DNA from: an uncultured virus (IMG/VR IMGVR_UViG_3300015608_004663)
Taxonomy: Duplodnaviria; Heunggongvirae; Uroviricota; Caudoviricetes
Direction: 5' to 3' (one strand)
Length of the DNA: 64,000 nucleotides
IMG/VR virus record: IMGVR_UViG_3300015608_004663
Each line of letters starts with the position of its first letter. Positions within the stretch are counted from its first letter, which is position 1. This document shows positions 42,852 to 60,760 of this stretch, piece after piece. A program made the position numbers and the translations under genes. The notes below the pieces were generated by a model, which searched no databases, was not told the DNA's origin, and worked only from the letters and a program-made list of their open reading frames with translations.

Positions 42852-42872
42852 AAGCGCAAACGCAGAAGATCG

Positions 42873-44066
42873 TCACTTTCTTTCAACGATACCAGAGCTT
42901 GCTTTGTGCATGATGACAGCGCCAATCAAAGATAGCGCAATCAGAGATGCGAACAAACCGCTATAACCTAGCGGCGCTTTAAGCGCACCAACAGCGCCAG
43001 AAGCAAAGTGTCCGATTGCGTTAGAACCAAACCAAAATCCCATGTGCTGCGCTTGCTTGTGCTGCGGCGCAGCGTGACTGATAAGTGTCATGATTGCTGG
43101 TGAGATCAGCAATTCTGCTACAGTCATAGCTAGATAAATTGCAAAAATCGGTAGCATGCTACCTTGCCCGGGCTGACAGTTGATAACGCTAACAAGCACG
43201 CTTAGAAATCCCAGCGCGATGATCAGCATCCCAGTCACAAGCTGCTGCTTAAATGAGAACCCGCGCTTAGAGAAAAATGCTGGCACTCTTTCTCCAAGCA
43301 TGATCACAAAAACAGAATTTAGCGCAGAGAATACTGTCGCCGGGATCACGTATGATAACACTTGTCTGTCAATGATATCTCGCGCGTAAAATGTCAAGCT
43401 ACCATTAAACTGATTAAAAACACACCAGAAAATTGCAGCCGCAGCATACACTAAATAGAGTGTTTTTTCAGAAGCTGAAAGCTTCACATCTACGTGCTTC
43501 GCTGCGCTTTGCTGAATTGTAGTTACTGCAGTTTGAATCAATTTTGATCTTGCGATGAAAGTTGTTGCAATCGTAGCTAGACCAGCTGTCGCAAACATCG
43601 CTGGCCATCCAAAACTATGTTTTGCGATCTCTGCGACGACTGGAGCTAGCATCGCTCCGATGTTTGTCGCCATGTATAGTTTGTAAAACGCGGCTGTTTT
43701 GTTCGTCTGATCAGCGACAGCGCCGCAAGTTGCCGTTGCGGATGGCTTATACAAGCCGTTTCCAACCATCAAAAACAGCACAGCAACAAGCAGCGGTGCG
43801 CTGATTGAGAATGAAAAGTAACTCATAGTTAGCGCCGCTGCGCCAACGACAAGCGCTTTTCTTTGACCGATCTTATCAGATAAGATACCACCGCCGAGAG
43901 GACCGAGGTAAGCAGCACCGCTGATCATACCCGTCAAAAACTGAGCTGTTTCTACAGAATATCCTAATTTTTCATTAAGATAAATCGCGATGAGATCTAA
44001 AACCATGTAGAAACTCATTCGCTCAGCGCCGTGACCAACAAGCAGTGCTGAAAGTGCTTTATTCAT
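42873..44066 (-). CDS. Proton-dependent oligopeptide transporter (POT/PTR, MFS)
   Basis: AERMSFY, GGILSDKIG, GNGLYKP, YMATNIGAMLAP, AELLISP. Confidence 0.9.
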   Translation of the reverse strand: MNKALSALLVGHGAERMSFYMVLDLIAIYLNEKLGYSVETAQFLTGMISGAAYLGPLGGGILSDKIGQRKALVVGAAALTMSYFSFSISAPLLVAVLFLMVGNGLYKPSATATCGAVADQTNKTAAFYKLYMATNIGAMLAPVVAEIAKHSFGWPAMFATAGLATIATTFIARSKLIQTAVTTIQQSAAKHVDVKLSASEKTLYLVYAAAAIFWCVFNQFNGSLTFYARDIIDRQVLSYVIPATVFSALNSVFVIMLGERVPAFFSKRGFSFKQQLVTGMLIIALGFLSVLVSVINCQPGQGSMLPIFAIYLAMTVAELLISPAIMTLISHAAPQHKQAQHMGFWFGSNAIGHFASGAVGALKAPLGYSGLFASLIALSLIGAVIMHKASSGIVERK

Positions 44067-44309
44067 TTGATAGTTCTCCCAAGCGTCTAGATCATTTGTC
44101 TTAATTGTAATCAGACACTACTTGTGTCTGTATTTGCACAATTTGTTTTGCTTGTCTTTTACGAAGAATCGCGTCTCTAGTTAAACACATCTCACAAGTG
44201 CAGCGAATCAGCTGAGCTGAGAGAAGAAGCTCATCTTGACAGATGTGAACTCCGCTGATCAAGGCTATTGAATTGTTCCGACGTACAGAAATAGTAACAT
44301 TTGAATCAC

Positions 44310-44693
44310 TCAGAATAGCAATTCTGCTTCAGAATCATTGATCTCGATCTGTGAAGATGCATCAGTGATTCTAGCTAAAACCGCAAGATCTCGTAAAGAT
44401 TTAAGTTTTTGCAGTTTTTCAGCGCTTTCATGCACAGCGCGCCAGTATTTCTCAACAAGATCTTCATCTGCAGTTTTGTTGCGAAGTGCATCTAGAGCTT
44501 GCGCTTCTGTGAGCTCGACTGATTTGTGAATTAAAAATATCGCAGTTTTAGCGCGTTTGATCACCAGATCAATGATCGGCTGCACCTGTTTGTTTTGCGA
44601 TTCTAACAACAGATTAATTTGTTGATTGATCTTTGATAGCAGCACATAAGAACTGATCATCGCGACAGCCATTATTATTTCAATTCCTTTCAA
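44310..44693 (-). CDS. Hypothetical helical protein
   Basis: 127-aa ORF; start uncertain. Confidence 0.55.
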   Translation of the reverse strand: MKGIEIIMAVAMISSYVLLSKINQQINLLLESQNKQVQPIIDLVIKRAKTAIFLIHKSVELTEAQALDALRNKTADEDLVEKYWRAVHESAEKLQKLKSLRDLAVLARITDASSQIEINDSEAELLF

Positions 44694-44758
44694 TCACTCG
44701 CTGCAGCGAGTGATAAACTTTTCGCTTCAAGCGTTTCATCATTGTCTTTGATGCTATC

Positions 44759-45715
44759 TCATTTTCTGCTCAGAAGAAATTTTTCACTGTGATATTTCAG
44801 TATCACTCTCCCAATTCCTTTAGCAAATCTGTCTACCACTGGTTTGACAACGAAACCCTCTTTTATGTTGTGCCCAAGAGAAGATTGACCATTTGCTAGA
44901 GTCAGCAACTGCTTTGACCACGGTCCTCTGTGTAATAGAGTTGCAGCAGTTAATTTTAGCTCTGAAATAAATTTTTCAAATTCTTCATCTGACAGATACG
45001 ACATTGTCTTAGTGTTCTGCGCTTCAAACAAAACAAGCCCGGGATTTGTTTGTGTGAAACCGTATTGAAGATCTTTGCAACCGATCGCTTCTCCAAACAC
45101 AACGATGTCTTGATGCTGCTTCATCTTTGAAGCAAGATCATATTTTTTGCGAATTGCGTTAAAAATTGAGTCTTCAGACTCATGTATTATCGCTCTTCTA
45201 GATGCCACGATCAGCTGATCTGTGAATGTGAATCTGATGTTGTTTCCATGAAACTTTTCTCTTATGACAACTTCTTCTTGATCTTGCAAGACATTTGGCC
45301 ACGTTCTTAAATTGTCTATGTTGACATAGCGTGGTAGCATCTCTATGTCTGCTGGAGTTTCTCGCTCGTCATCGCTGTCTTCTGGTGGCTCCCAGCGTTT
45401 GATGTTAAGCGCCTCTGTTACATCATCACCCTCAAGCATGCCGGGTGAAGCTTTTACAAGGGCGCCCATTGAGAACACGCCGCGAATCTTTCTCGGTCTG
45501 ATTCGACCGTCTGATCCGAAAAGATGAGCAAATCTTGCATCGTTCTTAGGAAGAATTGCAGTGATTGGAATGTACACTGCTAAATCACCCTCAGAAACTT
45601 CTCCGTTTTTAACGATGACTGTGTAATCAAACACTTTTGTGATAAAAAGCGTATCTGCATCATGGTGCTTGTGCAAAGCACCGATCTTCACAACTGTAGC
45701 TTTGAACGTAGACAT
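44759..45715 (-). CDS. RNA ligase, DRB0094-like (N-terminal OB/tRNA-binding-like domain plus Rnl2-type ligase)
   Basis: H.DADTL...GDLAVYIP...KIRGVFSMG; EKFHGNN; FGE; KEGFVVKP; ILK. Confidence 0.9.
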   Translation of the reverse strand: MSTFKATVVKIGALHKHHDADTLFITKVFDYTVIVKNGEVSEGDLAVYIPITAILPKNDARFAHLFGSDGRIRPRKIRGVFSMGALVKASPGMLEGDDVTEALNIKRWEPPEDSDDERETPADIEMLPRYVNIDNLRTWPNVLQDQEEVVIREKFHGNNIRFTFTDQLIVASRRAIIHESEDSIFNAIRKKYDLASKMKQHQDIVVFGEAIGCKDLQYGFTQTNPGLVLFEAQNTKTMSYLSDEEFEKFISELKLTAATLLHRGPWSKQLLTLANGQSSLGHNIKEGFVVKPVVDRFAKGIGRVILKYHSEKFLLSRK

Positions 45716-45783
45716 GAACTATCTTTGCAAGATAATAAAATAATCAAACTAAGTTTGCATTCTGCTAAGTGATATTTTAGATC

Positions 45784-46125
45784 ATGAAAAAGCAAACAAA
45801 AATTATTGCTACGCTGTGCTGCGCTCTGCTGGGTGCGTGCGTAAGTCTGTCTACGCTAACGCATGATTTTGCTGATAGATCAGCAGTTGCTAGACAGCTA
45901 GATGATGGCAAATCTGAATTGACGTTGAAGTGTCAGCGCACAAGTCTTGAAGGTGTTCAGCTTGCAAAGCGCGATGCAGTAGCAGCTTTATTAACAAAGA
46001 AGCGCGCTGATGAATTAAGAGCTGCTGTTTATGAAGCGTGCAAACATACGGAGATGCAACATGACATGGTGGACAAATCTGTTAGAGATGGTGGCGTCAG
46101 CGATAACAAAGTTGACGCAAACTGA
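45784..46125 (+). CDS. Putative lipoprotein
   Basis: MKKQTKIIATLCCALLGAC signal with lipobox. Confidence 0.7.
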   Translation: MKKQTKIIATLCCALLGACVSLSTLTHDFADRSAVARQLDDGKSELTLKCQRTSLEGVQLAKRDAVAALLTKKRADELRAAVYEACKHTEMQHDMVDKSVRDGGVSDNKVDAN

Positions 46126-46213
46126 GCGAAAGAAAGCAGACAAAGACCAGCAAGATATCATTGATGATATCAAAGCAGCAGAAGCTGTTAGAAAAAAAAC
46201 AAATTCTAACTGA
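46061..46213 (+). CDS. Small amphipathic protein overlapping the lipoprotein gene
   Basis: MTWWTNLLEMVASAITKL...; ggag upstream. Confidence 0.45.
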   Translation: MTWWTNLLEMVASAITKLTQTERKKADKDQQDIIDDIKAAEAVRKKTNSN

Positions 46214-47495
46214 GATCTTTGTTAGCTTTTGACACAGCTGCGACAAGCGCGCACAAAGCAACTACGCACAGTCCCAGCTTGTATGATGATATTGACCACA
46301 TTCCAATCTCAGCTCTTGCAAACCAGATCGCTATCACAAGCATCGCGATTGGAGCAAGCACTACATAAGCGAGTCCAAAAACTCCAAACGGAACGCGAAA
46401 GTGAGATCCTGTGTTTGGTTGCATCACTCTGATCGTGATCAAAGATATTGCTTGCAGCGCGTACACGACTCCGTAAAGAATAACATCAATCTCGATCAAG
46501 CGCTTCAAGCCCACGCTCATGCTCAGAGCGTACACAGCGCAAGAAACAATGATCGTCATGTACGGAACTCCGCGCGAGTTAACAGCACCAAACATTCGCG
46601 GCAAGATTTTATCTTCTGCTAGTGATAAAGGTATCTGAGAGTACGATGTAACAAGAGAGCTAAACATCCAGATACCGCACAGCATCCCACCGATCGCTGT
46701 CCAGGCCCTTAAGTACGAGCCACCAATAGCTTCTCCTATGTCAACCCAAGAGCCAATCACCATTGATTCTGTGTGATATTTTGATGCAACAAAGATAGCT
46801 GCAGCGTAGCAGCAAGTCGTGATAAGCACAGCTAAGAATATGCCGCGCGGATACGTTCTCTGCGGTTGATCAACTTCTTTAGCAAGAGTTGATGCATTGT
46901 CCCAGCCGAGGTAGTTCCACAAACACATCAAAATTGCTACTTCTTTAGATCCGTCATTGTTAACTGAAGATGTTACAGTTGGCATGCCGACAGCGCCAAG
47001 AAACATTATGATAAAGGGCGCTAGCAACGCTAGCATGATCAGCGTCGATCCGCGGCCGACGAATTTGATTCCAAACATGCACGCGACCGCGCAGACAGCG
47101 ATCATGATCGATCCAGCAAACCACGCAGGAGAGAAAAGATTCATGTCTGCACTCAGCGCTGGAAATATCTTGGCAAGATATGTCACGAACAGCGTTGGGT
47201 AGATCGCCATGTCAAAGAAGCTCATAGCCAGCGCAGACCAAGCTAGCATTGAAGCCATGAAAGTTCCATTAGATCTTTTGATCCAATCGTAATATCCGCG
47301 GCTGGCAGGGTGGGCTGCTGCCATCTCACCAACAAGCATCGCTATTGGTAGCGCCCACACAAAAGGCACGATCAGTATGACGATCAGAGATAACTTCCAA
47401 CCAAGAGCTGCGATTGTTTCTTCAAGAGCGTACGGTCCACCAGAAACAATGAAGAATGTAGTTGCTGCTAGTGATAGCGGTGTTAACTTGTTCAT
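46206..47495 (-). CDS. APC-family amino acid/polyamine permease
   Basis: FFIVSGGPYALEE, WNYLGWDNASTLAKEVDQPQRTYP, about 12 TM segments. Confidence 0.92.
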   Translation of the reverse strand: MNKLTPLSLAATTFFIVSGGPYALEETIAALGWKLSLIVILIVPFVWALPIAMLVGEMAAAHPASRGYYDWIKRSNGTFMASMLAWSALAMSFFDMAIYPTLFVTYLAKIFPALSADMNLFSPAWFAGSIMIAVCAVACMFGIKFVGRGSTLIMLALLAPFIIMFLGAVGMPTVTSSVNNDGSKEVAILMCLWNYLGWDNASTLAKEVDQPQRTYPRGIFLAVLITTCCYAAAIFVASKYHTESMVIGSWVDIGEAIGGSYLRAWTAIGGMLCGIWMFSSLVTSYSQIPLSLAEDKILPRMFGAVNSRGVPYMTIIVSCAVYALSMSVGLKRLIEIDVILYGVVYALQAISLITIRVMQPNTGSHFRVPFGVFGLAYVVLAPIAMLVIAIWFARAEIGMWSISSYKLGLCVVALCALVAAVSKANKDLS

Positions 47496-47651
47496 CGCGC
47501 GACGCTCCAGTAGATCTAGTGATCTGAGTGATTCACATCTTAGATTGATCGAGATGAGTGCTAAGAATCATCTGCAGCTAAGATCGCTAGCTAGCTTAGA
47601 GCCGCAGGTGTCTGCGCGGGCAAGCTTTAGCGGTGCAAGATCTGCAAATAT

Positions 47652-48332
47652 TTAAGCGTATCGCAAGAAGAAATCATTTGTTTCTGAAGCAGAAACTTGC
47701 TCAAGAACGCACAAAACATCTTCAAACGAATCAAGATCAACTGATTCATTGTGAATCATACCTGACTCAAAATCAGGCTCTTTCGCAGTCAACCTCCATA
47801 GCAGCGTTGGTGAATCGCGAGTCTGACCGATCTGCTCAACGATAACGCAAGTATCACCAATTGATACGTGAGATTCGTGCTGCAAGCACATGTTCAGATC
47901 ACCAACTCTAACTGCTTTGCCAGCGTCAGCGCTCTCTTCTGGCACGCGCACCGTGTACATCTCTAATCGAGATCTTGTCATGCTATCAATGATAGCATTT
48001 GGGCGCCACTCAACAAGATCTCGCACGATCTGCATCGCTGCAGACGTTCCCACCATCTCAACTGAGAGAAGCGGCCGATCACAAAAAGATGCAGCGATTG
48101 AAAATCCTCGCACAAACTCACCGCGATCATTCTTGCCCAGAACAGAAAAAATGTAAATCAAGTCAAGCGCTGATTGCTGCTTTGGCTTCAGAACAACAAC
48201 GGGTACTGATCCGCTCTCTAAAGATAGAAGCTCCACATCAAGATCTGAGCGAAGATTTCTTGCACACGTAGCAATGATTGACAGAGTTTCTTGTGGGTCA
48301 GCCACTGGCATGCGTAATTCTAGCGTTTGCAT
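47652..48332 (-). CDS. Hypothetical protein
   Basis: 226-aa ORF with gagg RBS. Confidence 0.7.
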   Translation of the reverse strand: MQTLELRMPVADPQETLSIIATCARNLRSDLDVELLSLESGSVPVVVLKPKQQSALDLIYIFSVLGKNDRGEFVRGFSIAASFCDRPLLSVEMVGTSAAMQIVRDLVEWRPNAIIDSMTRSRLEMYTVRVPEESADAGKAVRVGDLNMCLQHESHVSIGDTCVIVEQIGQTRDSPTLLWRLTAKEPDFESGMIHNESVDLDSFEDVLCVLEQVSASETNDFFLRYA

Positions 48333-48372
48333 CTATTTCCTCTAACACTCACGATGAGTGATTTCATCGTGT

Positions 48373-49317
48373 TCAGCACTTGCAAATCTGCACTTCATCA
48401 CAGAGCGATCTGATCGCTTTCTCTACTGCGCTCTCATACACGTCAAACTCAGCAGATCTTGGCAAATCTCCAGTTTCTACTAGCTGCTCGATCTGATTCT
48501 TGACGGTTCCAATATCTCGACCAGATAGATTCCATTTATCTATCAACCAATTACCGAATCCTTTCTTGAGGAGAGGTGGCATCGCGTCTTCTGCAATGAC
48601 GCGCTCCATCTTCGCAAGAAGAGCGTCTGCATTTTTGTGCGCAGCGCGAATCTTAGCTGGATTTCTTGTAGTGAGATCTGATCTTGATAGAATCATCAGA
48701 TCTGATGCGCGAGGACCACATTCTTTAACGAATCGTCTCACAGCGCTGTCTGACCACTCACTGGAGTGCTCTGCTGGGCGCAAGTGGTGAGCAACTAGCC
48801 AAGAGACATCATCAATGAGACTCTGCGAGACCTTTGCATCGCGCAAGACAGCCTCAGTTATGCGAGCTCCGACTATTGGATGATTGTAAAACGTTGGTCC
48901 TTTTCCCTCAATGAGCTTGAAGGTGTCTGGCTTGCCAATATCGTGAAGCAGTGCTGCTAGACGCAAATTAAGTGAATTTGGCACGCCTGCGATAACAGCA
49001 AGCGTGTGCTCCCACACGTCTTTGTGGCGCCTGTTTGGTTCTTGCGATAGCTTGATCAGACTATCTATTGTGGGAATGATCAGCGATAGTCCTCCGCAAG
49101 CATAGAAGACGCGCAAACCAAGCGCTGGGTTTTTCTCTGTTAGAAGAACGCAGAGAGCGTCGAGCGCTTCTTTTGTCGTTAGCGACCGCTCGTTTCTGAA
49201 CGCTGAGCAAGCTCTGATCGATTCAGGCACGCCCGCGCTTGTTAGCGTCAGTGACGTAGATGCAACCCAGAGCGCTGCAGCGACAGCGTCTTTTTGATTT
49301 GATAGTGTGTGCGTCAT
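48373..49317 (-). CDS. HD-domain phosphohydrolase derived from the C-terminal half of CCA-adding enzymes (no nucleotidyltransferase head)
   Basis: Q...HKDVWEHTL, LRLAALLHDIGKP.T, FYNHPIVGA, HHLRP, WSDSAVRR, SRSD; no GG-x-VRD/DxD motif. Confidence 0.85.
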   Translation of the reverse strand: MTHTLSNQKDAVAAALWVASTSLTLTSAGVPESIRACSAFRNERSLTTKEALDALCVLLTEKNPALGLRVFYACGGLSLIIPTIDSLIKLSQEPNRRHKDVWEHTLAVIAGVPNSLNLRLAALLHDIGKPDTFKLIEGKGPTFYNHPIVGARITEAVLRDAKVSQSLIDDVSWLVAHHLRPAEHSSEWSDSAVRRFVKECGPRASDLMILSRSDLTTRNPAKIRAAHKNADALLAKMERVIAEDAMPPLLKKGFGNWLIDKWNLSGRDIGTVKNQIEQLVETGDLPRSAEFDVYESAVEKAIRSLCDEVQICKC

Positions 49318-49574
49318 GTCTGTTCGCGCAAAACGGCCCAGTCTTCTTTAAGAATTTTTGTTTTTTCTTGCAATAGCTTTGCAGTGCCGTCACTGAACAT
49401 GACAAGCAACAGCATGTTATCGCCTAAGTAGCGCTCACACAAAGGCGAAATAACAAAAGCTAGCGTGATCACTACGAGTCTTTTCTTTCGCTTGCTAGCT
49501 TCAGCTTCTTTTTGCTTACGCCTAGATGGAATGTGACACAAGCAAGATCCCGGTAATACATCACCTTCTATCAT
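49314..49574 (-). CDS. Small PG-motif hypothetical protein
   Basis: MIEGDVLPGSCL...LVVITLAF...LLLVMFSDG; promoter directly upstream. Confidence 0.6.
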   Translation of the reverse strand: MIEGDVLPGSCLCHIPSRRKQKEAEASKRKKRLVVITLAFVISPLCERYLGDNMLLLVMFSDGTAKLLQEKTKILKEDWAVLREQT

Positions 49575-49580
49575 AGAAGT

Positions 49581-49610
49581 ATTGTACCTTGTGAAGGTGT
49601 CGCGTTGCAC
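49581..49610 (-). promoter_or_regulatory. Putative early promoter GTGCAA-N18-TACAAT
   Basis: The -10 box lies 6 nt from the ATG at 49574; same layout at 50971 and 54513. Confidence 0.65.
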
Positions 49611-49986
49611 TGTTTCGATTTAAAAAATGTTGATCTTGCAAAAGATTCAAGCGTGAATTTGTGCCTTTGACGCAAACAAAACTGTGCAAAATACGTTAGA
49701 ATCATGTTTGCGCACAAAGACCAGTGCCGAGTCTGCAGCGTCAGCGCTCTACAAGATTGTGAGCGCAGCAATTCAAAGTAGGGTCAGCGCGTCAGATTTA
49801 ATAACACACTGCATGATCGCAGTGCACAGATTTGTGCACTGGGTTGAACGGTGTAATAATATGAACCATGAAAATCAAACACTTGATTGAAATTATTGAT
49901 GACGTGTTAACGCTGAAGCGCTTAGTGAAACAATCTACGATCTGTGCTTGCTGTTTTCTTGCAGCGCTGTGTATCATTAAAAACAA

Positions 49987-50472
49987 ATGAACATCTTTAT
50001 TTTAGATGAAGATCCCGCGATCGCAGCGCAATCGCTAGCAGATCAGCACATCAACAAAATGATAGTTGAGCACTGCCAGCTGCTTGCAACAGCTCATGAC
50101 AAAAGCATCTCACCGTACAAGCACACTCACATCAATCATCCGTGTGCAAAATGGGTAAGAAAATCTTTCGCAAACTATGTTTGGCTCGTTGAGTGCACGG
50201 GTGAGCTGCTGTGCGAGCGATCGCACAGGTGGCCAGATCGAAAAATTCATAAAACTGATGCTGTCTGGAGATGGTATGCTGAAAATGCGCATCTAGCCAA
50301 CTGTGAAATCATCTACCCGATGACACCGTTCGCTCAGGCGATGCCTGACATGTTCAAGGGAGATGATGCAGTCGCTGCTTACAGAGCGTACTACAAAGCA
50401 AGAAAGATGCTGCTTAGAAACAAACCAGCTGCTTGGACCAACAGAGACAAGCCAGCTTGGTTGCTTACGTGA
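49987..50472 (+). CDS. Pyrimidine dimer DNA glycosylase / endonuclease V-like
   Basis: MNIFILDEDP...DQHINKMIVEHCQLLATAH...YKHTHINHPCAKW...FAQAMP...AYRAYY. Confidence 0.88.
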   Translation: MNIFILDEDPAIAAQSLADQHINKMIVEHCQLLATAHDKSISPYKHTHINHPCAKWVRKSFANYVWLVECTGELLCERSHRWPDRKIHKTDAVWRWYAENAHLANCEIIYPMTPFAQAMPDMFKGDDAVAAYRAYYKARKMLLRNKPAAWTNRDKPAWLLT

Positions 50473-50479
50473 GCTCGCA

Positions 50480-50731
50480 TCACTGAGCGTGCGCCCAGCG
50501 CTCGCGCTTCTTTGGCAGATCACCAAAACACATCTTCACAAGCTTGATTCTAGCGTGAAGAATATCGTACCTGATATCGCGCGTTTCTACGCGACCGTCA
50601 TAACGCAGCAGCGTTAGCGTTAACGCTTCACAGCGAGCGCTCTTTCTTGTAACTGCAAGAATCATTGACAAGCAGATGTTGCTAAAATTTGCGTCTATCA
50701 CGACGCCTGGCATTGTGTATTCAGTTTGCAT
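50480..50731 (-). CDS. Small PG-motif hypothetical protein
   Basis: MQTEYTMPGVVID...MILAV...LLRYDGRV. Confidence 0.55.
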   Translation of the reverse strand: MQTEYTMPGVVIDANFSNICLSMILAVTRKSARCEALTLTLLRYDGRVETRDIRYDILHARIKLVKMCFGDLPKKRERWAHAQ

Positions 50732-50750
50732 TTTCAGCTTTCGATAGAAA

Positions 50751-50927
50751 TCACAAAGAGAAGTGAAGCAAGCTTAAAGAGCTTGCTGCTTGATGATCGC
50801 TGCAAGCTTTCGACATCTCTATGAGATTTGAGATCTGGTGCTTGATATCGCTGATAGGCACGCCGCTTCTGACGCTCCATTTTAGCAGCGCGTGTTTAAT
50901 ATCAACAATTGCTTCAACGTCTAGCAT
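50751..50927 (-). CDS. Hypothetical protein
   Basis: ATG at 50927 preceded by an aaggag RBS. Confidence 0.55.
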   Translation of the reverse strand: MLDVEAIVDIKHALLKWSVRSGVPISDIKHQISNLIEMSKACSDHQAASSLSLLHFSL

Positions 50928-50962
50928 GAAACGCTCCTTTTGTTTTAGATCTAAACTTTCTT

Positions 50963-51000
50963 GCAAAAAAGTGCACTTTTTTGCGCGGGCACATTAGATT
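50963..51000 (+). promoter_or_regulatory. Promoter of the RNase P RNA gene within a perfect 22-bp palindrome (possibly bidirectional)
   Basis: GCAAAAAA-GTGCAC-TTTTTTGC (50963-50984); GTGCAC-N18-TAGATT ends 7 nt before helix P1. Confidence 0.7.
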
Positions 51001-51007
51001 CAATGTA

Positions 51008-51377
51008 ATCGAGCTGCTCAGTCAATCGAGAGTCGCAGAGCTTGTGCAAAAAAGCAATCAGCTCTGAGGAAAGTCCGAGCTTCACAGAGCGTAGCGCTAG
51101 CTAACAGCTAGTCAGAGCAATCTGAAGAACGTGCAACAGAAAGCAAACAGCCGAAGTCTTCAAGACTGGCAATGGTGAAACGGTGCGGTAAGAGCGCACC
51201 ATGTCACTGGTGACAGTGACAGTTTGGTAACTCCGCTAGAAGCAAGATCGCGCAGAGAGTGATGATGCTGCTCGCGTAGCTCTCGGGTAGATCGCTAGAG
51301 CGATGCAGTGATGCATCGCCAAGACAAATGACTCTCTAACAACAGAACTCGGCTTATGATTGACTGAGCAGCTCGAT
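51008..51377 (+). ncRNA. rnpB: Ribonuclease P RNA, bacterial type A
   Basis: GAGGAAAGTCCGAGC (51066), GTGCAACAGAAAGCAAA, GGTGAAACGGTGCGGTAAGAGCGCACC, ACAGAACTCGGCTTAT; perfect 20-bp P1 (51008-51027/51358-51377); P2 GAGAGTC/GACTCTC; P8 CTAGC/GCTAG; P9, P14 and P18 hairpins with GNRA loops; GGT in L15. Confidence 0.97.
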
Positions 51378-51381
51378 CAGA

Positions 51382-52125
51382 TCAGCGAGCAAATGAATTT
51401 TTCATGATAGATCTTGAATCCCACCGCGATCCTGGCTGGAAGCTCTTTGAAACGATCTTGTATCGTGCGATAAGAGCATTTTCTCTGCAGAGCTTGATGT
51501 AAGCTCCCTCTCTCTGATCTATTGCAGAGTAAGCTGATTTTCCCTCTCGGTGTGAGATGACAATAGATTTAAACTGCTCTAAATTTGGGATCGTTTTCGT
51601 GCAGAGCAAGCCATGAACCACTGAAAACCCTGATTTTTGCAGGGCTTCTCTAGCAGAGATAGAATCAATGAAGTGGCGCTCAGACGGGATCCAAACATCA
51701 TACGCTAAAAACACATCTGGCAGCGCATTGTACTTGATAGAGTGACAAGCGAACAACCACTCTCCGTACACAACGACTCTTTCTCCTAAAAGCTGAGCGA
51801 GTGATTCAAACAGCGCTTTGCGCTGGTACATCCACGTCCATAAAGAAGAGAATTGCATCTTTGCAGGCGTCTTAGCGCTGAAGCTCTTTCTCAAGAAGTG
51901 ATTTCTGTTTCTTGCGATCGGTTGATCTTGCTCATCAAAAGCTACGCCAAGATTTGCACCGTCAACTTTCTCTTCGATCTGGAGAGAGTCGCAGCTAGAG
52001 AGCGCTTGCTTGATCTCATCTTCACTAGCGATCAGATCATCACGACTGGTGTTTGCTTCCCATGGAAGGTGCTTAGTGCGCGGGAAATCAAAGATCTCTA
52101 CTTTTGTCACAGCAGACATGATCAA
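51382..52125 (-). CDS. RNA ligase family protein (ATP-dependent, Rnl2-type nucleotidyltransferase domain)
   Basis: FPRTKHLPW, EEKVDGANLG, YGEWLFACHSIKY, FLAYDV, REGAYIK, RYKIV. Confidence 0.9.
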   Translation of the reverse strand: MIMSAVTKVEIFDFPRTKHLPWEANTSRDDLIASEDEIKQALSSCDSLQIEEKVDGANLGVAFDEQDQPIARNRNHFLRKSFSAKTPAKMQFSSLWTWMYQRKALFESLAQLLGERVVVYGEWLFACHSIKYNALPDVFLAYDVWIPSERHFIDSISAREALQKSGFSVVHGLLCTKTIPNLEQFKSIVISHREGKSAYSAIDQREGAYIKLCRENALIARYKIVSKSFQPGSRWDSRSIMKNSFAR

Positions 52126-52246
52126 ACCTCATTTCACACAAGCTCTCTTGATCATCAGCGCGAGAGCTCGATCGATCGCTTCTTTTATCAGATCTTTCAG
52201 ATGTTTCGCGCTCAGCACAGTGACTCCTTTTTGGCGCTCGCTCAGA

Positions 52247-52840
52247 TCACTTGAGTCGAATGACTAGCTCTCTGCTCGAAGACGGCGCCCAACCGCTTGT
52301 TGACGCTGCCCAGCCTGCGGTCAGCAGCCTTGATGCAAGCTGAGATGCATCTATAGCGCTCTTCGCTGCTTGAGCGTCTCTACTTGTCCATCTGGTCTTG
52401 TCGCGAGCGCTGACGAAGTTGCCAGGGCCGATCTTGATCTCGCTGCGCCGCCTGCGCAGAAGATCTGCGATCTGCTCGATCGCTCGCTCAGTCGCGCCAG
52501 AAGATCTTAACTCAGATTCAACAGTGCTTATCACGCTCTCATCTGCGCTGTCGCTCACAACTCTTGATCTGACGCTTGGCAACACGACGCTGTCGCTGGT
52601 CGCGATCCACGCCGCGCTCGCTGGATCGAACTTCAGCTCAGCGGGTGAACCAGGTTCACCCGCGTAGTGCTTACCGCCCTTATCAACTGCGATCACGAAA
52701 TTTGGGTGCTGCTGCAGCAGCTTCATAGCTGATTTTCTAAGTGGCGTCACAAGCTTCCCGCTTCTTGGATCCCACAGCTCCAACCGAGACTCGCTGATCA
52801 CCGTCTCTTTGATCAATTCTCTGATCATTCTTAAGCTCAT
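52247..52840 (-). CDS. Putative internal head protein; paralog of 53093..53764
   Basis: Leader LRMIRELIKETVISE; shared domain DP...LL...P...D..G..YAGEPGSPAELKF. Confidence 0.65.
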   Translation of the reverse strand: MSLRMIRELIKETVISESRLELWDPRSGKLVTPLRKSAMKLLQQHPNFVIAVDKGGKHYAGEPGSPAELKFDPASAAWIATSDSVVLPSVRSRVVSDSADESVISTVESELRSSGATERAIEQIADLLRRRRSEIKIGPGNFVSARDKTRWTSRDAQAAKSAIDASQLASRLLTAGWAASTSGWAPSSSRELVIRLK

Positions 52841-53092
52841 GCAAGTTAAGTATAGGCTTCAGATCAAGCGACGCTCTCGACATTTTTGCAGGGCGCTCGC
52901 GATCAAAAAGCGCGGCGCCGACCAGTGAAATCATCATTATGAAAAATCAGAGCAAGCAAAAACATCTAAGTGATCTGTGGGAGCGATCTCGCAATCAAGA
53001 TCGCAAAGATCTAGAAAAGAGCTGATCGAGCACGGTGCACTCTGATTCAGATCTTCTCAAATTTATAAGATTCTTATCTGTTACGCGCTAGC

Positions 53093-53764
53093 TCAAGCGA
53101 GCCTTAACATAGCAGCTTTCACAGCTGCTCGCTCAGCGCGAGTGCCGTGATCGATCACGTCTTCTACGCAGCCATTAGCGATCAGATCGTCTGCAGACTG
53201 CTCACCTGGATTCAGCTCTGGGATCGAAGCGATCGCTCTCGCTGCTAGCTGCTTACACTTATAAAAGATCTCAAGTCGCGCGTCTTCTGCTGCTTCTGTC
53301 TTCGGTTTTGGACCAAAGAGAGCGATGATGTCAGCTCTTGTCGGTCGCTCATCGAGCTCCGTCTTATCTGATTCAAGCTGCAGCAGGTGATCGCGAGCTG
53401 CCGCAGCTTGCAGCGCTTGCAACTTAGCGCCAGTGATAGCTCCACGCGGGATGCGCACGTCACTGTATGTGCCATCGATCCACTGTGGTTCTGTGTATCT
53501 GCCAGTCGGCCGGCCACCGCCACCAAAGATCGGCTTCGGTCCCCATTTCAAACAAGCTGGCATGCCAGGGTGCCCAGCGAACCATGCGCCAGAGCTGTCT
53601 CTGACAACTGCGAGATCTGGCTCTCTTGTCAGAAGCAACCGAGCGTGAGCTTCTGACGCGGGACGCTCCTCACTCAGAGTTGGATCAAACACTGTCACGC
53701 TCTCTGAGAAGAGGGCTTCAGAGATCAGCTGTCTCAGCAGTGATGTACTATCTTTTCTTCGCAT
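53093..53764 (-). CDS. Putative internal head protein; paralog of 52247..52840
   Basis: Leader LLRQLISEALFSE; FAGHPGMPACLKW. Confidence 0.65.
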   Translation of the reverse strand: MRRKDSTSLLRQLISEALFSESVTVFDPTLSEERPASEAHARLLLTREPDLAVVRDSSGAWFAGHPGMPACLKWGPKPIFGGGGRPTGRYTEPQWIDGTYSDVRIPRGAITGAKLQALQAAAARDHLLQLESDKTELDERPTRADIIALFGPKPKTEAAEDARLEIFYKCKQLAARAIASIPELNPGEQSADDLIANGCVEDVIDHGTRAERAAVKAAMLRLA

Positions 53765-53776
53765 CTTTTAACCTCT

Positions 53777-54004
53777 CTATCGCTTCGCTAGCCAGCGAGC
53801 GGAGTATCTCGCTGCATCAAGCGCAGCTTTTAAACCTTCAACGCCAACTTTGTGAAAATCAAGTGAGTCGCTGTTCTGTGAGCGAAGACTCTTGATACGC
53901 AAGTGATGTTTTGCGATCTTTTCAAGAACGTTCAGCGGCGCGACACTAGTGTCTACTGCTTCTCTGATGATCGTCTTAAGCGAATTTAACGTGTCTGTCT
54001 TCAT
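53777..54004 (-). CDS. DUF6900-like domain protein with L-x-x-II-x-E leader
   Basis: LEKIAKHHLRIKSLRSQNSDSLDFHKVGVEGLKAALDAA; leader LKTIIREAV. Confidence 0.7.
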   Translation of the reverse strand: MKTDTLNSLKTIIREAVDTSVAPLNVLEKIAKHHLRIKSLRSQNSDSLDFHKVGVEGLKAALDAARYSARWLAKR

Positions 54005-54049
54005 ACCGTCTACCGTGCAGAGTAACTATCAGATCTGTTCAGATCTAGA

Positions 54050-54442
54050 TCACAGATCTAAAACAACGGCTCTCTCACGCCAGTCTCTCGCGCCTGGCAT
54101 CTCGTGCTCAAACCCAATGCGCTTCAAGACAGAGAACTGCTCAGCAGTGAGCAGATCAGCGCGCTTGATCTTGATCTGCTCAGCACTGTGCTCTATCGCC
54201 CACTGCGTCAGCAGATCGACTGCTTCACTGATGTCAGCTTGTTCACCGATCATCTCAAGTCGAACGACGATAGAATCATCAGCGCTCTTGTGAAATGCGC
54301 ACTGAAACGATCTCGCAGCGCCCCACTTGATCTTTGGATAGTTTGTGCAAGACAGCGCATTGCGACCGTGAATGACAATCTCTGGCGCGCTGTCAATCTC
54401 TTCTTGTGCGATCTCTGTGATCAGTCTGTATAAAAGCGTCAT
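54050..54442 (-). CDS. Hypothetical protein with LLYRLITE leader; weak GNAT-like C-terminus
   Basis: LLTQWAIEHSAEQIKI...VLKRIGFE. Confidence 0.6.
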   Translation of the reverse strand: MTLLYRLITEIAQEEIDSAPEIVIHGRNALSCTNYPKIKWGAARSFQCAFHKSADDSIVVRLEMIGEQADISEAVDLLTQWAIEHSAEQIKIKRADLLTAEQFSVLKRIGFEHEMPGARDWRERAVVLDL

Positions 54443-54512
54443 GTTTTCAGTTCGCTATCGCGTCTCTCTGACACTCATAAATATCTGTTCGCAGCAGATC
54501 TTTGTCTTGACT

Positions 54513-54542
54513 GTGCATCTTATTTCACTGTCGTGATATGAT
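54513..54542 (+). promoter_or_regulatory. Putative early promoter GTGCAT-N18-TATGAT
   Basis: The -10 box lies 6 nt upstream of the ATG at 54549. Confidence 0.65.
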
Positions 54543-54548
54543 CATCAC

Positions 54549-54590
54549 ATGATTGAAGAGCTGCCTGGCGATCTTTGGGTTAGTGACTGA
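54549..54590 (+). pseudogene. Truncated PGDL-family gene
   Basis: MIEELPGDLWVSD followed by TGA. Confidence 0.5.
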
Positions 54591-54619
54591 AGACTGATCA
54601 CCATAAAAGATGGAAACTC

Positions 54620-54844
54620 TTGAATAAGATTAAACAAACAAAGCCTGGTGATCTCTACGCATTCACTGACCAAGATCGCCATGGTTATTGTGGATACGCA
54701 GACGCTGTGCTGATCGTGTTTGTTGAAGATAATGATAAGCTTGCTCTCACCGCCTGCCGTGTTTCTGCCACTCTGACAAACAGTGATATTTACGCGCGAA
54801 CTTCTTATGGCCTCATTCTCAGAGATCGTGTTAAGCTGATATGA
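54620..54844 (+). CDS. PGDL-family small protein
   Basis: TKPGDLYAF...VLIVFVE. Confidence 0.65.
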   Translation: MNKIKQTKPGDLYAFTDQDRHGYCGYADAVLIVFVEDNDKLALTACRVSATLTNSDIYARTSYGLILRDRVKLI

Positions 54845-55048
54845 CACAGAAGCGACTAGATTCTTAAACTTGTTAAGTTGCAGAGAAATCGCATGCGTCT
54901 CTCTGAGAAGAGCGCAACTTTGAAAGAAGCGCACTGTTTTGAGACTCTTCTGCTCTCTAAGATCTATGATGACATAGGCGCGTTTAAGAACGCGAGCTCT
55001 GTCTTCTGATGTTGTGCAATCTTTCACAAATAGAGATATGATCTGATC

Positions 55049-55243
55049 ATGTCGACAAGACACAACTTCGAAGCCAATCTGCGGGCAGGAGATGTTTTTT
55101 ATGGATCTTGGAGTCGCGCCATCGACTTGATATTGATCATCTCAACTGGACGCCATAGCGCGCTCGTTGTGAAAGCAAACGCCGCGCAGTGTGACATCAA
55201 AGATGTCTACTATTCAGCTATTTACGTTAGAAAGAGACTGTAA
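55049..55243 (+). CDS. PGDL-family small protein
   Basis: LRAGDVFYG...LILIIS. Confidence 0.6.
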   Translation: MSTRHNFEANLRAGDVFYGSWSRAIDLILIISTGRHSALVVKANAAQCDIKDVYYSAIYVRKRL

Positions 55244-55464
55244 TGTCAGATTCACAAGGCGCAGAAGAGAGCGATCAGACAGTCTTCGCTGGTGATTTGA
55301 TGTCGCGCGGTTCTGATCTGGGCTTCGCGATCTCGTGTGACTGCAGCATCATCTTGTACGCTGAGAGCAATCTGACTGACGCTTTTCACTTAGCAGTGTT
55401 CAGCTTTCACTGCTGGAGCTTTTTTTCAGATCATTTTGATCTCATAGAGCGAGCTAGCTCATGA
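55243..55464 (+). CDS. PGDL-family small protein
   Basis: VFAGDLMSR...GFAISC; TAATG overlap with the previous gene. Confidence 0.55.
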   Translation: MSDSQGAEESDQTVFAGDLMSRGSDLGFAISCDCSIILYAESNLTDAFHLAVFSFHCWSFFSDHFDLIERASS

Positions 55465-55574
55465 CAGGCTAGCGGAGACTTGCTACCTGACTGTTACGCA
55501 TCAGCGACAGATCTCTTGATAACTGCTGATCTCAGCGACGATTCACTTGCATCGCAAGGTCAATTCTGACGCAA

Positions 55575-55830
55575 GAATTCTCGGGAATCTCGTGAGACAG
55601 AGTGACCGAATCAGGCGACGAAAAATCTCGGGAAATTTTTTGTGAACAGCGGCTTGAACTGAACGGCGAGAATCTCGGGAATTTGTGCGCAGCCCAGGGC
55701 ACACCCGACCGCCCTCGAGAGCCCTATACATGTTGGCCAGCCCCAGCCCCCCGTTTTATGGGGCCTTTTATGGCCCTTGTTATGGGGCCCCTCTGTGGGC
55801 TTGCTGGGAAAGACAAAGGGGGGGCCTGCA
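55575..55830. repeat. Non-coding element: three TCTCGGGAA boxes at 47-bp period, then TTATGG(GG)CC repeats and C/G tracts
   Basis: Boxes start at 55579, 55626 and 55673; ttatggggcc/ttatggccc/ttatggggcccc follow; G-tracts up to G7. Confidence 0.75.
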
Positions 55831-55978
55831 ACTAGCAGTGTCGAAGCAACTTCAGCGTTGCGCTCGCGTCGCAAGTCCTCTTGATACTGGGTCTGAAAGT
55901 CAGCGATGAAGCGCAGCGGGTCTTCAGTGCGGCGCAGGATGCTCTTGCAAATCGGCGAGGATAGCTCAGCAGAGACGA

Positions 55979-56173
55979 TCAGGAATTAGCATTAGATGAT
56001 CTCTTCTCAGCATTCCACTGTCGCTGCGCGATCGCTGTGTTGAGTTGCTGCTGACGCAGGTGCACATCCCAGCAATATGTGCAGTAGCCCGGTTTTGGCT
56101 TAGCTGCACCCACAGGGCCGTAGGGTGTATTACATGAGCTGCAGATGTAGCGAGGTCGCTGTGGTGTAGTCAT
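55979..56173 (-). CDS. Small Zn-finger protein
   Basis: CSSC...CTYC. Confidence 0.6.
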   Translation of the reverse strand: MTTPQRPRYICSSCNTPYGPVGAAKPKPGYCTYCWDVHLRQQQLNTAIAQRQWNAEKRSSNANS

Positions 56174-56213
56174 TGGATCACTTTGTGTTTCTTCAGAACG
56201 GCGAACATCACCG

Positions 56214-56429
56214 TCACAGCGACAGCAGATGCGCTAAGAGCGGATTGACTGCGTTAAGCGCACAGCTACCCTCGATCACGAGCTTGCCATCGCGCTCAAT
56301 CACGCCTGTTACATCACCGATAAGTGGATCCGTGTCGTCATCAGCGGCTGAGGTGCTCTCAAGTTGCACGGTCGCTGAGCCAGGTATCTTTGACTGCTGC
56401 AAGAGCGAAATCAGTTGATCTTTGGTCAT
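56214..56429 (-). CDS. Hypothetical protein
   Basis: aagga RBS; MTKDQLISLLQQ... Confidence 0.6.
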   Translation of the reverse strand: MTKDQLISLLQQSKIPGSATVQLESTSAADDDTDPLIGDVTGVIERDGKLVIEGSCALNAVNPLLAHLLSL

Positions 56430-56453
56430 CGTGTCATCCTTTCAGCGCAGAGA

Positions 56454-56666
56454 TCACCTCTTTACCCTAGAGATCAGCCTCATGTTGAAGAACGGTTTGT
56501 AGCAGTGAATTGTCGCCGATGCGCTTGCGTCTCTATCATCTGATCGAGCGCAAATGTACAAGACGTCTGCTCCATCACCAGAATCGTGAGTGATGCACAA
56601 GACAAGTCCTCAGCTTGGCCGCGGCGATCGCAGCAAGTCACCTGGGTTTGTCGGCTCTTCTCTCAT
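56454..56666 (-). pseudogene. PGDL-family gene with in-frame TGA
   Basis: MREEPTNPGDLLRSPRPS*GLVLCITHDSGDGADVLYIC...; stop at 56610-56612 in an otherwise full-length 70-codon frame. Confidence 0.65.
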
Positions 56667-57176
56667 TGTTTCGCTCTGTCCCAAGCATCTGCTAAAGATC
56701 TAGCCTCGATGAGGCGTTGCTTTGACGCAATGAGCTGCTGCGACAAGCAGATGATCGCTGGTCAGAAAATCTGACTCACTCCAGCTCACTCATTTGAGTC
56801 TCGATCTTGCTCACGACAGTCAACGTTAGCAAGATCGCTAGCGGCAGCAGACACCAGACAGCTGCGACTCCACTAAGATACATCATCAGACCAAGAGTAA
56901 TAGCTAGAGCACAGGCTACGTAGAAAACTGGTTGCATCTGTTCACCTCACTGTCATCATCACGCCAGGTTGCTTCTCAAAGTCAAGACGCATGCGCGCCG
57001 TGAGCTGTTGCAGCGCTCATAACGTGCTAGACCGGTCTAGACGTCGTATACGAGGTGCTACGAGGCCTCCCGCGCCGTTGCGGCCAGGCGGTTGTCCGGC
57101 GCCTTGGGCTCGAAGATCATCAGGTAGCCATCAACCGGCGTGTTGTTGGCCATCACCGTGTTCCACGTGTGCGAGA

Positions 57177-57383
57177 TCACCAGCGGCAGGTTCGATGTGA
57201 ACTGCTCGATGCAACCAAGCCGTATCCTCGTATGCAACGAGGACATTTCACGCGCTCGACAGTGAACGTACCAATGCGGTCAGCCCACTGACAGCGCTCA
57301 ATTTCTCCTGATTGGAAGCCAATCCAAGCGTGACACGTATCACACTGCACACGTCTGTATTCAGGTTCAAGTATTACTGGCAT
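57177..57383 (-). CDS. Small Zn-ribbon protein
   Basis: CDTC...CPRC; ggaggg RBS. Confidence 0.65.
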   Translation of the reverse strand: MPVILEPEYRRVQCDTCHAWIGFQSGEIERCQWADRIGTFTVERVKCPRCIRGYGLVASSSSHRTCRW

Positions 57384-57567
57384 TGTTCCCTCCTCTCTGT
57401 CCTCGACTGTACTTGGTAGTCAAGATCTTCAAGCAACAAAAGCTGCTCTGGCGCCTGCGCGTTGCTCAGTCGTAGCTGTTTGGTACTTCTTCATGATCTT
57501 GCCTCACAGTGTTTGTTGCGCGCATCTCAGTCAAGCGCGCTTCACAGTCCACGCGCTGCAAATTGCG

Positions 57568-57780
57568 TCACTCTAGACAAGTTAGATTCACGATGCCAGC
57601 TTCACTCATGATCTCGCTCTTGATGCTGAGTGTGTTAGCTCGCTCAGAGAAAAAATCAGCGACGATGATCTGAACTGCCTGCTTGGCGACGGCGGCGCAG
57701 ATGAACATGTCAATCGTTTTGATCGTTGTGTGTCTGAGCAGCAGATCACCTGGTGCTGCGATCGATCGGTCACTGCGCAC
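57568..57780 (-). CDS. PGDL-family small protein
   Basis: AAPGDLLLRH...MFICAAV. Confidence 0.65.
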   Translation of the reverse strand: MRSDRSIAAPGDLLLRHTTIKTIDMFICAAVAKQAVQIIVADFFSERANTLSIKSEIMSEAGIVNLTCLE

Positions 57781-58006
57781 TGGAGATCCTCCCTAGCCAC
57801 TCTGTGGCTGTGTCGATCTGCACGATCTTTGTGCTGATCATGATTGGGTTGCGATCTGCTTTCAGCAGATCTTGAGGCTTCGTTTTAAGAAACAGGTAAA
57901 ACATACCTGAGTGACCGATAGCAAAGTACAAGCTGATGGTTCCGTCTTTCCAAGATCGCCAGAAAAGCTCGCCAGGTTTAGAGACGCTTGCACATTGATC
58001 GCGCAT
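57770..58006 (-). CDS. PGDL-family small protein
   Basis: SKPGELFWR...LYFAIG. Confidence 0.65.
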   Translation of the reverse strand: MRDQCASVSKPGELFWRSWKDGTISLYFAIGHSGMFYLFLKTKPQDLLKADRNPIMISTKIVQIDTATEWLGRISSAQ

Positions 58007-58007
58007 T

Positions 58008-58223
58008 TCACTCTGCCCACAGTCTAGTCATCACCTGCCGCTGAAGCATGTGGTTGATCTGCTGCAGCGAGATCTGCGAGATGCTGAGCAAGATCGTGTC
58101 GTCTTCGTAAGACATCATCAAAGTTTTTGCAGTAGCATCATCGCAGTGCACGACAATGTGCAAGATCTTCGTACTTGGAAACCACGCGCGAGAAAAAAGA
58201 GCACCTGGAGCGTTCTTGTGCAT
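58008..58223 (-). CDS. PGDL-family small protein
   Basis: NAPGALFSR...LHIVVH. Confidence 0.65.
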   Translation of the reverse strand: MHKNAPGALFSRAWFPSTKILHIVVHCDDATAKTLMMSYEDDTILLSISQISLQQINHMLQRQVMTRLWAE

Positions 58224-58226
58224 TTG

Positions 58227-58435
58227 CTATTCTCTGCAAGCTGATTGTACTGCAGCTCGCTGTGACATTTCACTGAGCTTGATGAAAAAGTCTGGGTGAT
58301 TCAGCTGCGAGATAACTGTCGATCCATCAATATCTGTGAAGATGCCCAGCGCTGCTCGATCTGAGCAGTCAGCAAGAATCAAGCAAAACGTCGCTGCGCC
58401 GAACAGCAACAGAGTGCGCTTCTGCAGCAGATCAC
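58227..58435 (-). CDS. PGDL-family small protein, 5' end in assembly gap
   Basis: Sequence resumes at gt-GAT-CTG-CTG (DLLQKR...FCLILAD). Confidence 0.55.
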
Positions 58436-58466
58436 NNNNNNNNNNNNNNNNNNNNNNNNNNNNNNA

Positions 58467-58678
58467 CTCCATAGCAAGCCATGATCTGGTGGGTCGTACA
58501 CTGCGCTAAAGATCGCGCACCGAACATCACTCTAGATCATGATCGATGACATGATTTTGTCTTCACCAGTCACAGAGTGCAAGCAGAGTGTCATTATCGA
58601 AATGTTGCAATCATACTTGAAATAATACAAATCGCCCGGCGACATCCGCCGCGCTTGCTTGGTGTCATCCGCGCTCAT
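58467..58678 (-). pseudogene. PGDL-family gene with probable premature TAG
   Basis: MSADD...MSPGDLYYF...SIMI*SDVRCAIFSAVYD...; the frame continues past the TAG at 58532. Confidence 0.5.
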
Positions 58679-59270: not shown

Positions 59271-59291
59271 GACATCACTTTGCCTTGCTCT

Positions 59292-60182: not shown

Positions 60183-60189
60183 GTTACGC

Positions 60190-60734: not shown

Positions 60735-60760
60735 AGTTGATCCTTGACTTAGATAGAATC

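Follow-up and report, generated by a model that had tools for sequence, protein, structure and literature searches.

Only two ribozymes are universal, and one of them, ribonuclease P (RNase P), is usually regarded as strictly cellular. Large phages are known to carry other parts of the translation apparatus, namely tRNAs, transfer-messenger RNA (tmRNA), synthetases, and ribosomal proteins, and phage T4 repairs tRNAs with Rnl1 and polynucleotide kinase-phosphatase (Pnkp), by which it counters host anticodon nucleases. To our knowledge, T4 has no RNase P RNA and uses the host enzyme. Here, we describe a type-A RNase P RNA gene that is complete and has kept its conserved core intact, and which lies at 51008-51377 (+) in a 64,000-nt stretch of DNA from an uncultured virus (IMG/VR record IMGVR_UViG_3300015608_004663; Caudoviricetes), hereafter the window. 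A survey of huge phages (Al-Shayeb et al. 2020, PMC7162821) lists tRNAs, tmRNA, and tRNA synthetases as translation-related accessory genes; its RNAs were annotated with tRNAscan-SE and ARAGORN, neither of which finds RNase P, and its main text contains no occurrence of “RNase P,” “ribonuclease P,” or “rnpB.” Among viruses, a pox-virus RNase P-like RNA is discussed as a possible decoy in PMC3001073. A full-text literature search turned up no paper that describes an RNase P RNA encoded by a phage, with subscription journals and supplements outside the scope of that search.

An Rfam cmscan of the window returned a single match, to RF00010 (RNaseP_bact_a) at 51018-51371 (+), which scores 277.3 bits (E 1.8e-89) against a gathering score of 100 bits. 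The match is 354 nt long and untruncated, spanning model positions 1-367 of 367, and its score falls within the span of the other RF00010 matches in this analysis (149-335 bits). Helix mapping extends the RNA beyond the model match, as P1 forms a perfect 20-bp helix between 51008-51027 and 51358-51377. Including this extended P1, the most likely transcript is 370 nt (51008-51377, + strand), with a G+C content of 51% and a short P12. Across 33 RNAs compared, the window RNA has the longest uninterrupted P1 run, with 21 consecutive pairs when G-U is allowed, including the perfect 20 bp. The run is 15 pairs in two related metagenome contigs, L049 and L050, and 10-13 pairs in most of the others.

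Fitted to the canonical type-A structure with its P4 and P6 pseudoknots, the window RNA forms 121 pairs in 18 helices, of which only three are non-standard (one each in P3, P10/11, and P17). In the catalytic core (the P4 pseudoknot with its bulged U and conserved regions CR-I and CR-V), GAGGAAAGUCCG and ACAGAAC.CGGCUUA match the consensus. All seven P4 pairs are standard, including an A-U that replaces the G-C of the Rfam consensus, and the helix is invariant across three sequences. The S-domain (CR-II, CR-III, and P10-P12) is likewise present, with ACAGAAA and GGUGAAA..GUAAGAGC fitting the consensus at high posterior probability. P5 pairs as CUUC/GAAG and P6 as GAGC/GCUC, and the type-A periphery is formed almost throughout (pairs formed: P6, 4/4; P13, 6/6; P14, 9/9; P16, 6/6; P17, 4/5; P18, 8/8), with a GUGA loop capping both P14 and P18. 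The L15 GGU, which pairs with the 3′ CCA of tRNA, is kept and is aligned to the consensus CGGGUA, with CGGGUAGAUCGCU aligned to the consensus CGGGUAggccGCU. These results bear out an earlier sequence-only reading of the locus, which had reported all type-A conserved regions, a perfect 20-bp P1, the A-U for G-C exchange in P4, the P5, P6, P14, and P18 helices, and the L15 GGU; every one of these pairs or aligns as claimed, the conserved regions being covered by the full-model match and the 121 canonical pairs. The outcome of the Rfam covariance-model check that it had proposed is the score given above, 277.3 bits against 100.

An alignment of the neighboring RNA ligase was used to scan metagenome contigs, and the scan gave 80 loci (597 kb). 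Two of these, L049 and L050, encode ligases 61-62% identical to that of the window and also contain RNase P RNA genes (RF00010 at 303 and 299 bits), with the RNA gene and the ligase convergent exactly as in the window. By nhmmer, the RNA is absent from the other 78 ligase loci. Because only 2 of the 80 loci contain it, the link between this ligase family and RNase P RNA is lineage-specific. Both relatives are collinear with 41766-52125 of the window, at 37-76% amino-acid identity. The RNA is the best-conserved element of this island: the window and L049 copies share 81.6% nucleotide identity, whereas ten genes on its flanks reach 58-73% and the spacer upstream of it 52%.

Where the RNA has changed, it has largely kept its pairing. 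With the canonical structure applied to the window, L049, and L050 sequences, 96.8% of cells form standard pairs, and 13 pairs differ on both sides between the window and the two relatives (in P1, P7, P8, P12, P14, P17, and P18). So many compensated pairs did not arise in any of 500 shuffles, and structures slid by 1-3 columns give only 0-2. As read from the alignment, the P3 sequence differs in L049/L050 yet stays self-complementary, and the inner three P10/11 pairs are poorly formed in L049/L050 as aligned. Since the RNA is the best-conserved element and carries 13 compensated pairs, its fold shows the mark of selection, unlike that of a decaying passenger. This bears directly on the view that the gene is a bacterial rnpB, recently captured and of no use to the phage. 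Phages do acquire host genes, and a two-part motif of the RNA (19 + 27 nt) occurs in 55 species genomes, all of them Myxococcota and mostly Kofleriaceae; however, the best identity to Myxococcota genomes is only 66-70%, which argues that any capture was not recent. Together with the signs of selection on the fold, this leaves an idle passenger with a very slim chance.

The motif matches in Myxococcota were considered as a pointer to the host or donor, and we did not accept them as a host call. The window RNA is 58-66% identical to the Myxococcota RNAs overall (MAFFT alignment, in which the motif search itself fixes 46 positions as identical) and ~70% identical locally (blastn), and the Myxococcota RNAs have a mean G+C of 0.64, compared with 0.51 for the window RNA. 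DUF1391 and other small open reading frames (ORFs) point instead, weakly, to phages of Gammaproteobacteria. The DUF1391 ORF (60938-61126, +; E 1.1e-21) has homologs in phages of Escherichia, Pantoea, Serratia, and Salicola. A DUF6900 ORF (53777-54004, −; E 5.7e-16) has homologs in the Agrobacterium jumbo phage Atu_ph07 and in a 485-kb uncultured phage.

The carrier is best described as a large, myovirus-like phage from wastewater, uncultured and at least 191 kb in size. Its phage-like character is supported by baseplate genes, RNA ligases, PHROG matches, and the density of orphan genes. The protein cluster of the adjacent PF09414 ligase is found on 14 contigs, the longest of which is 190,941 bp. 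Its baseplate genes in the window are one of the gp25 family (PF04965) and one for a gp6-like wedge protein. Over 98% of its length, the gp6-like protein is 26-29% identical to baseplate wedge proteins from Flavobacterium phages, from a 484-kb uncultured phage, and from a Microcystis phage. The window also contains long presumptive fiber genes, with a T4 RnlA/gp63-like ligase beside them. Of the 47 larger ORFs, 18 match a PHROG and 23 match Pfam; of 48 further, mostly short ORFs, three exceed the Pfam cut-off. None of the 95 window ORFs scanned is a housekeeping gene, and on the other flank of L049, none of 15 ORFs matches Pfam. GenBank phages gave no nucleotide match to window positions 25000-45000 or 52000-58400 and no protein match to two large window ORFs, and no close relative of the adjacent ligase or of the gp6-like protein was found in IMG/VR.

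The join between the RNA gene and its flanks was checked against independent assemblies. Wastewater metagenomes contain the 2.3-kb region that surrounds the gene, and contigs from an independent study bridge both junctions: one of 1220 nt (50156-51375, 0 differences), one of 551 nt (51346-51872, 0 differences), and one of 980 nt (50545-51524, 1 difference). Because these contigs cross both junctions and a diverged relative keeps the gene order, the locus is not chimeric, and the chimeric join with host DNA that the sequence-only reading had named as its possible undoing fails as a refutation. More broadly, the region could be host or other bacterial DNA, whether through chimeric assembly, as a prophage flank, or as a bacterial region misread as phage. 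Several “viral” RNase P records do look bacterial at the match (Acinetobacter “phage” MD-2021a and Microcystis phage MaAM05, described below), and the window shows a G+C shift, transporter genes in the island, and no capsid or terminase gene in view. Against this stand the bridging contigs, the collinearity of the island, transporters included, with its relative at 37-76% identity, the phage-type or orphan flanks, the phage homologs of the small ORFs, and the 95 ORFs without a housekeeping gene. We thus consider a bacterial origin of the region to be highly improbable.

Upstream of the RNA lies a promoter-like site, GTGCAC-N18-TAGATT, at 50971-51000 (+), with GTGCACT as the −35 region, a spacer of 17-18 nt, and the −10 box TAGATT at 50995-51000. 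P1 begins 7 nt beyond the end of the −10 box, for a predicted start at ~51007-51008. In L049/L050, the aligned −10 box reads TATAAT, and its distance from P1 agrees with that in the window to within 2 nt; GCAAAA..TGCACTT, farther upstream, is kept, with the remainder of the 80-nt spacer 52% identical. A conserved, putative promoter-like site before the RNase P RNA is therefore supported by the comparison of these sequences. The sequence-only reading had claimed a phage-type promoter that matches others in the window: the conserved promoter-like −10 upstream of P1 stands, and the match to other sites is weak, as it comes down to three sites and a post hoc pattern. A loose form of the pattern has 5 matches in the window versus 3.99 expected, i.e., no enrichment. 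A sharper form, GTGCACT-N16-18-TANNNT, chosen after looking at the sites, has 3 matches, a count attained by 1 of 100 shuffles, versus 0.53 expected. Each of these sites precedes an island gene in the correct orientation: the RnlA-like ligase (40575-40604, −; reading GTGCACT-N18-TAGTAT at 40604-40575), the phrog_624 gene (49834-49862, +), and the RNase P RNA (50971-51000, +). This trio may represent a shared promoter or regulator site; the idea of a distinct class of phage promoters is no more than a lead. The −35 region is overlapped by a perfect 22-bp palindrome centered on GTGCAC (50963-50984), which begins at 50963, the first coordinate of the finding. The palindrome may be an operator; in L049 and L050, it is imperfect as read from the alignment.

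A weak hint of expression comes from a 209-nt contig identical to 51047-51255, which was assembled, in a further study, from an activated-sludge library labeled metatranscriptomic; no contig of that library came from the 2-kb flanks. The library itself is flagged “probably DNA.”

We then looked for the protein subunit, RnpA. As the sequence-only reading had noted, there is no rnpA in the window: none of the 95 ORFs matches PF00825 (47 searched at E<=1e-5 and 48 at E<=0.01), in a search that covers 64 kb of at least 191 kb. By eye, no small basic RnpA-like protein was seen among 12 neighboring window ORFs or three L049 counterparts. RnpA was also not found in any of five other huge viral records that bear an RNase P RNA (three at least 90% complete by CheckV, one with terminal repeats), in a search whose control finds RnpA in 10 of 14 known bacteria. 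Because RnpA is not encoded nearby, we infer that the phage RNA would use the RnpA of its host. Bacterial RnpA proteins work with foreign type-A RNAs, as seen in heterologous reconstitution, and for this reason the host protein is the simplest partner. The partner could instead be a phage protein of no known family, or there could be none. Many conserved orphan ORFs surround the gene, including two small ones that diverge from the promoter and are kept in L049, and the missing RnpA in all five huge viral records would fit such a scheme; yet none of the 12 neighboring ORFs, judged by eye, resembles the small, strongly basic RnpA, and bacterial RnpA proteins tolerate foreign type-A RNAs. We regard a phage partner, or no partner, as rather improbable.

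The RNase P RNA lies within a conserved tRNA repair and maturation island, a more specific setting than the one given by the sequence-only reading. Neighbors were named from NCBIfam and Pfam. The PF09414 RNA ligase (51382-52125, −) is convergent with the RNA gene, and its stop codon lies 5 nt past P1. On the other side, two small conserved ORFs (50480-50731 and 50751-50966, both −) are divergent from the RNA gene and share 44-49% amino-acid identity with their counterparts in L049; for the second, an ATG inside the frame near 50928 is the more likely start codon. Next to these is a gene for a phrog_624 “DNA binding protein” (49987-50472, +; E 1.6e-49), a family matched by 581 phage records, with 74% identity in L049. 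An HD/HDIG protein of 314 aa (48373-49317, −) corresponds to the C-terminal half of CCA tRNA nucleotidyltransferase (TIGR02692 positions 210-415 of 466, E 3.7e-39). Its nucleotidyltransferase head was not detected, and a 98-aa ORF just upstream of it (49314-49610) has no family match. Farther along are an RNA ligase of the DRB0094/PHA02142 type (44759-45715, −), a SpoU-family 2′-O-methyltransferase (TrmH/TrmL-like; 41254-41769, −), and a T4 RnlA (gp63)-like RNA ligase (39216-40403, −). The last of these scores 43.3 bits against a curated cut-off of 242, i.e., below it, and passes the cut-off of PF09511 at 50.2 bits. Pfam scans of the 95 ORFs gave no family match to polynucleotide kinase-phosphatase, and a complete Rnl1 plus Pnkp system was thus not seen in the window.

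Two further gene groups were noted in the window. Within the island, at 41766-47495 (−), are three transporter-like genes, namely a weak EamA-like match, a POT peptide symporter (TIGR00924, above cut-off), and an APC amino-acid permease. They are 72-74% identical in L049/L050 and are unusual phage cargo. Outside the island, a 16-kb sugar-modification run (8389-24334, +) includes eight glycosyltransferases, two NAD-dependent epimerase/dehydratases, and a UDP-glucose dehydrogenase, along with a Nol-like carbamoyltransferase (phrog_1601, E 4.7e-109) and a PD-(D/E)XK nuclease.

The sequence-only reading implied that an RNase P RNA gene in a phage is unique, which proved to be overstated, as such genes recur in huge IMG/VR phage contigs. 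We found the CR-I motif in 48 IMG/VR loci, of which 39 reach the RF00010 threshold (20/20, 14/20, and 5/8 by batch); some of these loci are host genes that sit at the edge of a prophage or on a short contig. Thirteen loci lie in contigs of 100-497 kb and score 166-308 bits against RF00010 (L003, L009, L010, L012, L016, L019, L025, L027, L034, L036, L041, L044, and L045). Some of these large-contig copies are lodged between tRNAs with gaps of only 1-10 nt, and several copies in tRNA-array phages are shortened (297-325 nt, 149-209 bits). Identity between the window RNA and the other IMG/VR RNAs averages 56%, and the window RNA is thus a separate lineage.

Public phage records were also searched. 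In a published 484-kb phage (LR756508.1), an unannotated 226-nt RF00010 match at 76010-76235 (+) (L188 1501-1726) spans the model ends. It is sub-threshold (49 bits, E 7.9e-15 and 7e-13), which suggests a strongly reduced RNase P-like RNA. A GenBank blastn with three RNase P RNAs as query returned “phage” matches that we set aside as bacterial-looking DNA or unannotated short fecal contigs; one further match was to a genome record of Salmonella enterica whose annotation reads “RNA component of RNase P.” In Acinetobacter “phage” MD-2021a, the match sits in the gap between fdx and tRNA-Met, downstream of coaD and beside an integrase, and in Microcystis phage MaAM05, it sits among fabI, engB, and mtgA; both regions look bacterial. 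The bacterial-looking “phage” records are MW495066.1 112321-118473 (L189) and CAKLQF020000022.1 41360-53648 (L184).

Altogether, we favor the reading, with a probability of roughly 0.6, that this phage encodes a type-A RNase P RNA within a tRNA-repair island, expresses it from its own promoter, pairs it with host RnpA, and uses it to trim the leaders of precursor tRNAs (pre-tRNAs) during infection. Transcription would proceed from a sigma-70-like promoter of the gene's own, with a start at or next to the first P1 base (~51008), and the long P1 would close and protect both ends of the RNA. The RNA would then assemble with host RnpA, and the hybrid enzyme would cleave pre-tRNA 5′ leaders while infection is under way. 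In this way, the ribozyme and the phage repair enzymes together could add to or safeguard the tRNA supply, as when the host no longer transcribes its genes or when defenses attack tRNAs. The sequence-only reading had likewise proposed a borrowed host RnpA, and had offered the replacement of a destroyed host RNA or a changed substrate range as possible reasons.

Several observations weigh against this reading. No tRNA gene was found by ARAGORN in the 64-kb window outside five masked N runs, nor by Rfam in 31 kb of L049/L050, and because tRNA genes were not detected in the window or in the 31 kb of the relatives, a phage tRNA substrate is not evident here. Nine of the 13 large-contig copies, by comparison, have tRNA genes within 600 nt, often several, whereas the window copy has none. 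A terminator-like site was sought 3′ of the RNase P gene and none was found, and among the sequencing runs on record as RNA, none contains the stretch. L049 and L050 are near-identical and are counted as one relative lineage. Capsid, portal, and terminase genes were not found in the 64-kb window, and the G+C content climbs from ~0.39-0.42 to 0.44-0.52 past ~38 kb, a shift because of which the island may be an acquired block. The masked N runs, 388 nt in all within 58436-63629, are in a region of short ORFs at 58436-58465, 58957-59037, 60783-60853, 61187-61312, and 63550-63629 (30, 81, 71, 126, and 80 nt, respectively).

The lack of tRNA neighbors also bears on what the RNA would do. It could be made for a main job other than general tRNA 5′ maturation, as a decoy for host RnpA or another host factor, or as an RNase P of shifted specificity that acts on phage transcripts or host RNAs. 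Such a role would be consistent with the absence of tRNA genes nearby, in which the window differs from most other phage copies, with the unencoded RnpA, and with the unusually long P1 run (21 pairs versus 10-13 in most of the 33 RNAs); there is also the pox-virus RNA, discussed as a possible decoy in PMC3001073. However, a decoy would not need the full catalytic core, L15 GGU, pair of GNRA docking helices, or S-domain, and all of these are kept, with compensatory changes. The neighbors, moreover, are tRNA-directed enzymes. We therefore judge a decoy or shifted role to be unlikely and retain pre-tRNA processing with host RnpA as the preferred function.

Taking the other viral copies into account, there is a possibility, to which we would give somewhat less than even odds, that RNase P RNA is a recurrent, undescribed accessory of large phages that invariably comes without its protein subunit and takes the RnpA of the host. 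In the window lineage, the gene would have left a tRNA array for a self-contained rescue island. This island, with its three RNA ligases, CCA-enzyme-like HD protein, and 2′-O-methyltransferase, would sustain the tRNA supply when the host is shut down or its tRNAs are attacked.

With a complete, selectively maintained phage copy, one of dozens in public viral contigs, the RNA catalyst of tRNA 5′ maturation would join the translation components that large phages are known to carry. It raises the question of whether a virus commandeers host RnpA with its own ribozyme, and why it would do so. It also has a practical consequence, in that RNase P RNA is unsafe as a “cellular only” marker for metagenome binning.

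Compared with known systems, the window RNA is closest to the type-A bacterial RNase P RNA itself (RF00010, with E. coli M1 RNA as the archetype), with which it has in common the conserved regions, helices P1-P18, the P4 and P6 pseudoknots, P13/P14, P16/P17, P18, the GNRA loops, and the L15 GGU. It differs from the archetype in its phage carrier, the lack of rnpA nearby, the 20-bp P1, the P4 A-U, the short P12, and the RNA-ligase neighbors. In T4 tRNA repair, the likeness lies in the island, which combines an RnlA-like ligase and further RNA ligases with tRNA-directed enzymes; unlike in T4, Pnkp has no Pfam match among the window ORFs. The pox-virus RNA, according to the review PMC3001073, is likewise virus-encoded and resembles RNase P RNA, but its resemblance is one of partial secondary structure and it showed no pre-tRNA cleavage in vitro, whereas the phage RNA is a full member of the family by covariance model. 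With the accessory genes of huge phages (PMC7162821), the locus shares the pattern of a large phage that carries part of the host translation and tRNA machinery. The nearest counterparts among viruses are the huge IMG/VR phage contigs, which also carry a type-A RNase P RNA and in which RnpA was not found (five of five searched); the window copy is set apart from these by its full size, its own promoter-like site, the absence of a tRNA neighbor in view, and its RNA-repair neighbors. The window gene thus adds a member to a known RNA family, in carriers of a kind that is unusual and apparently undescribed, and the case is less singular than it first looked.

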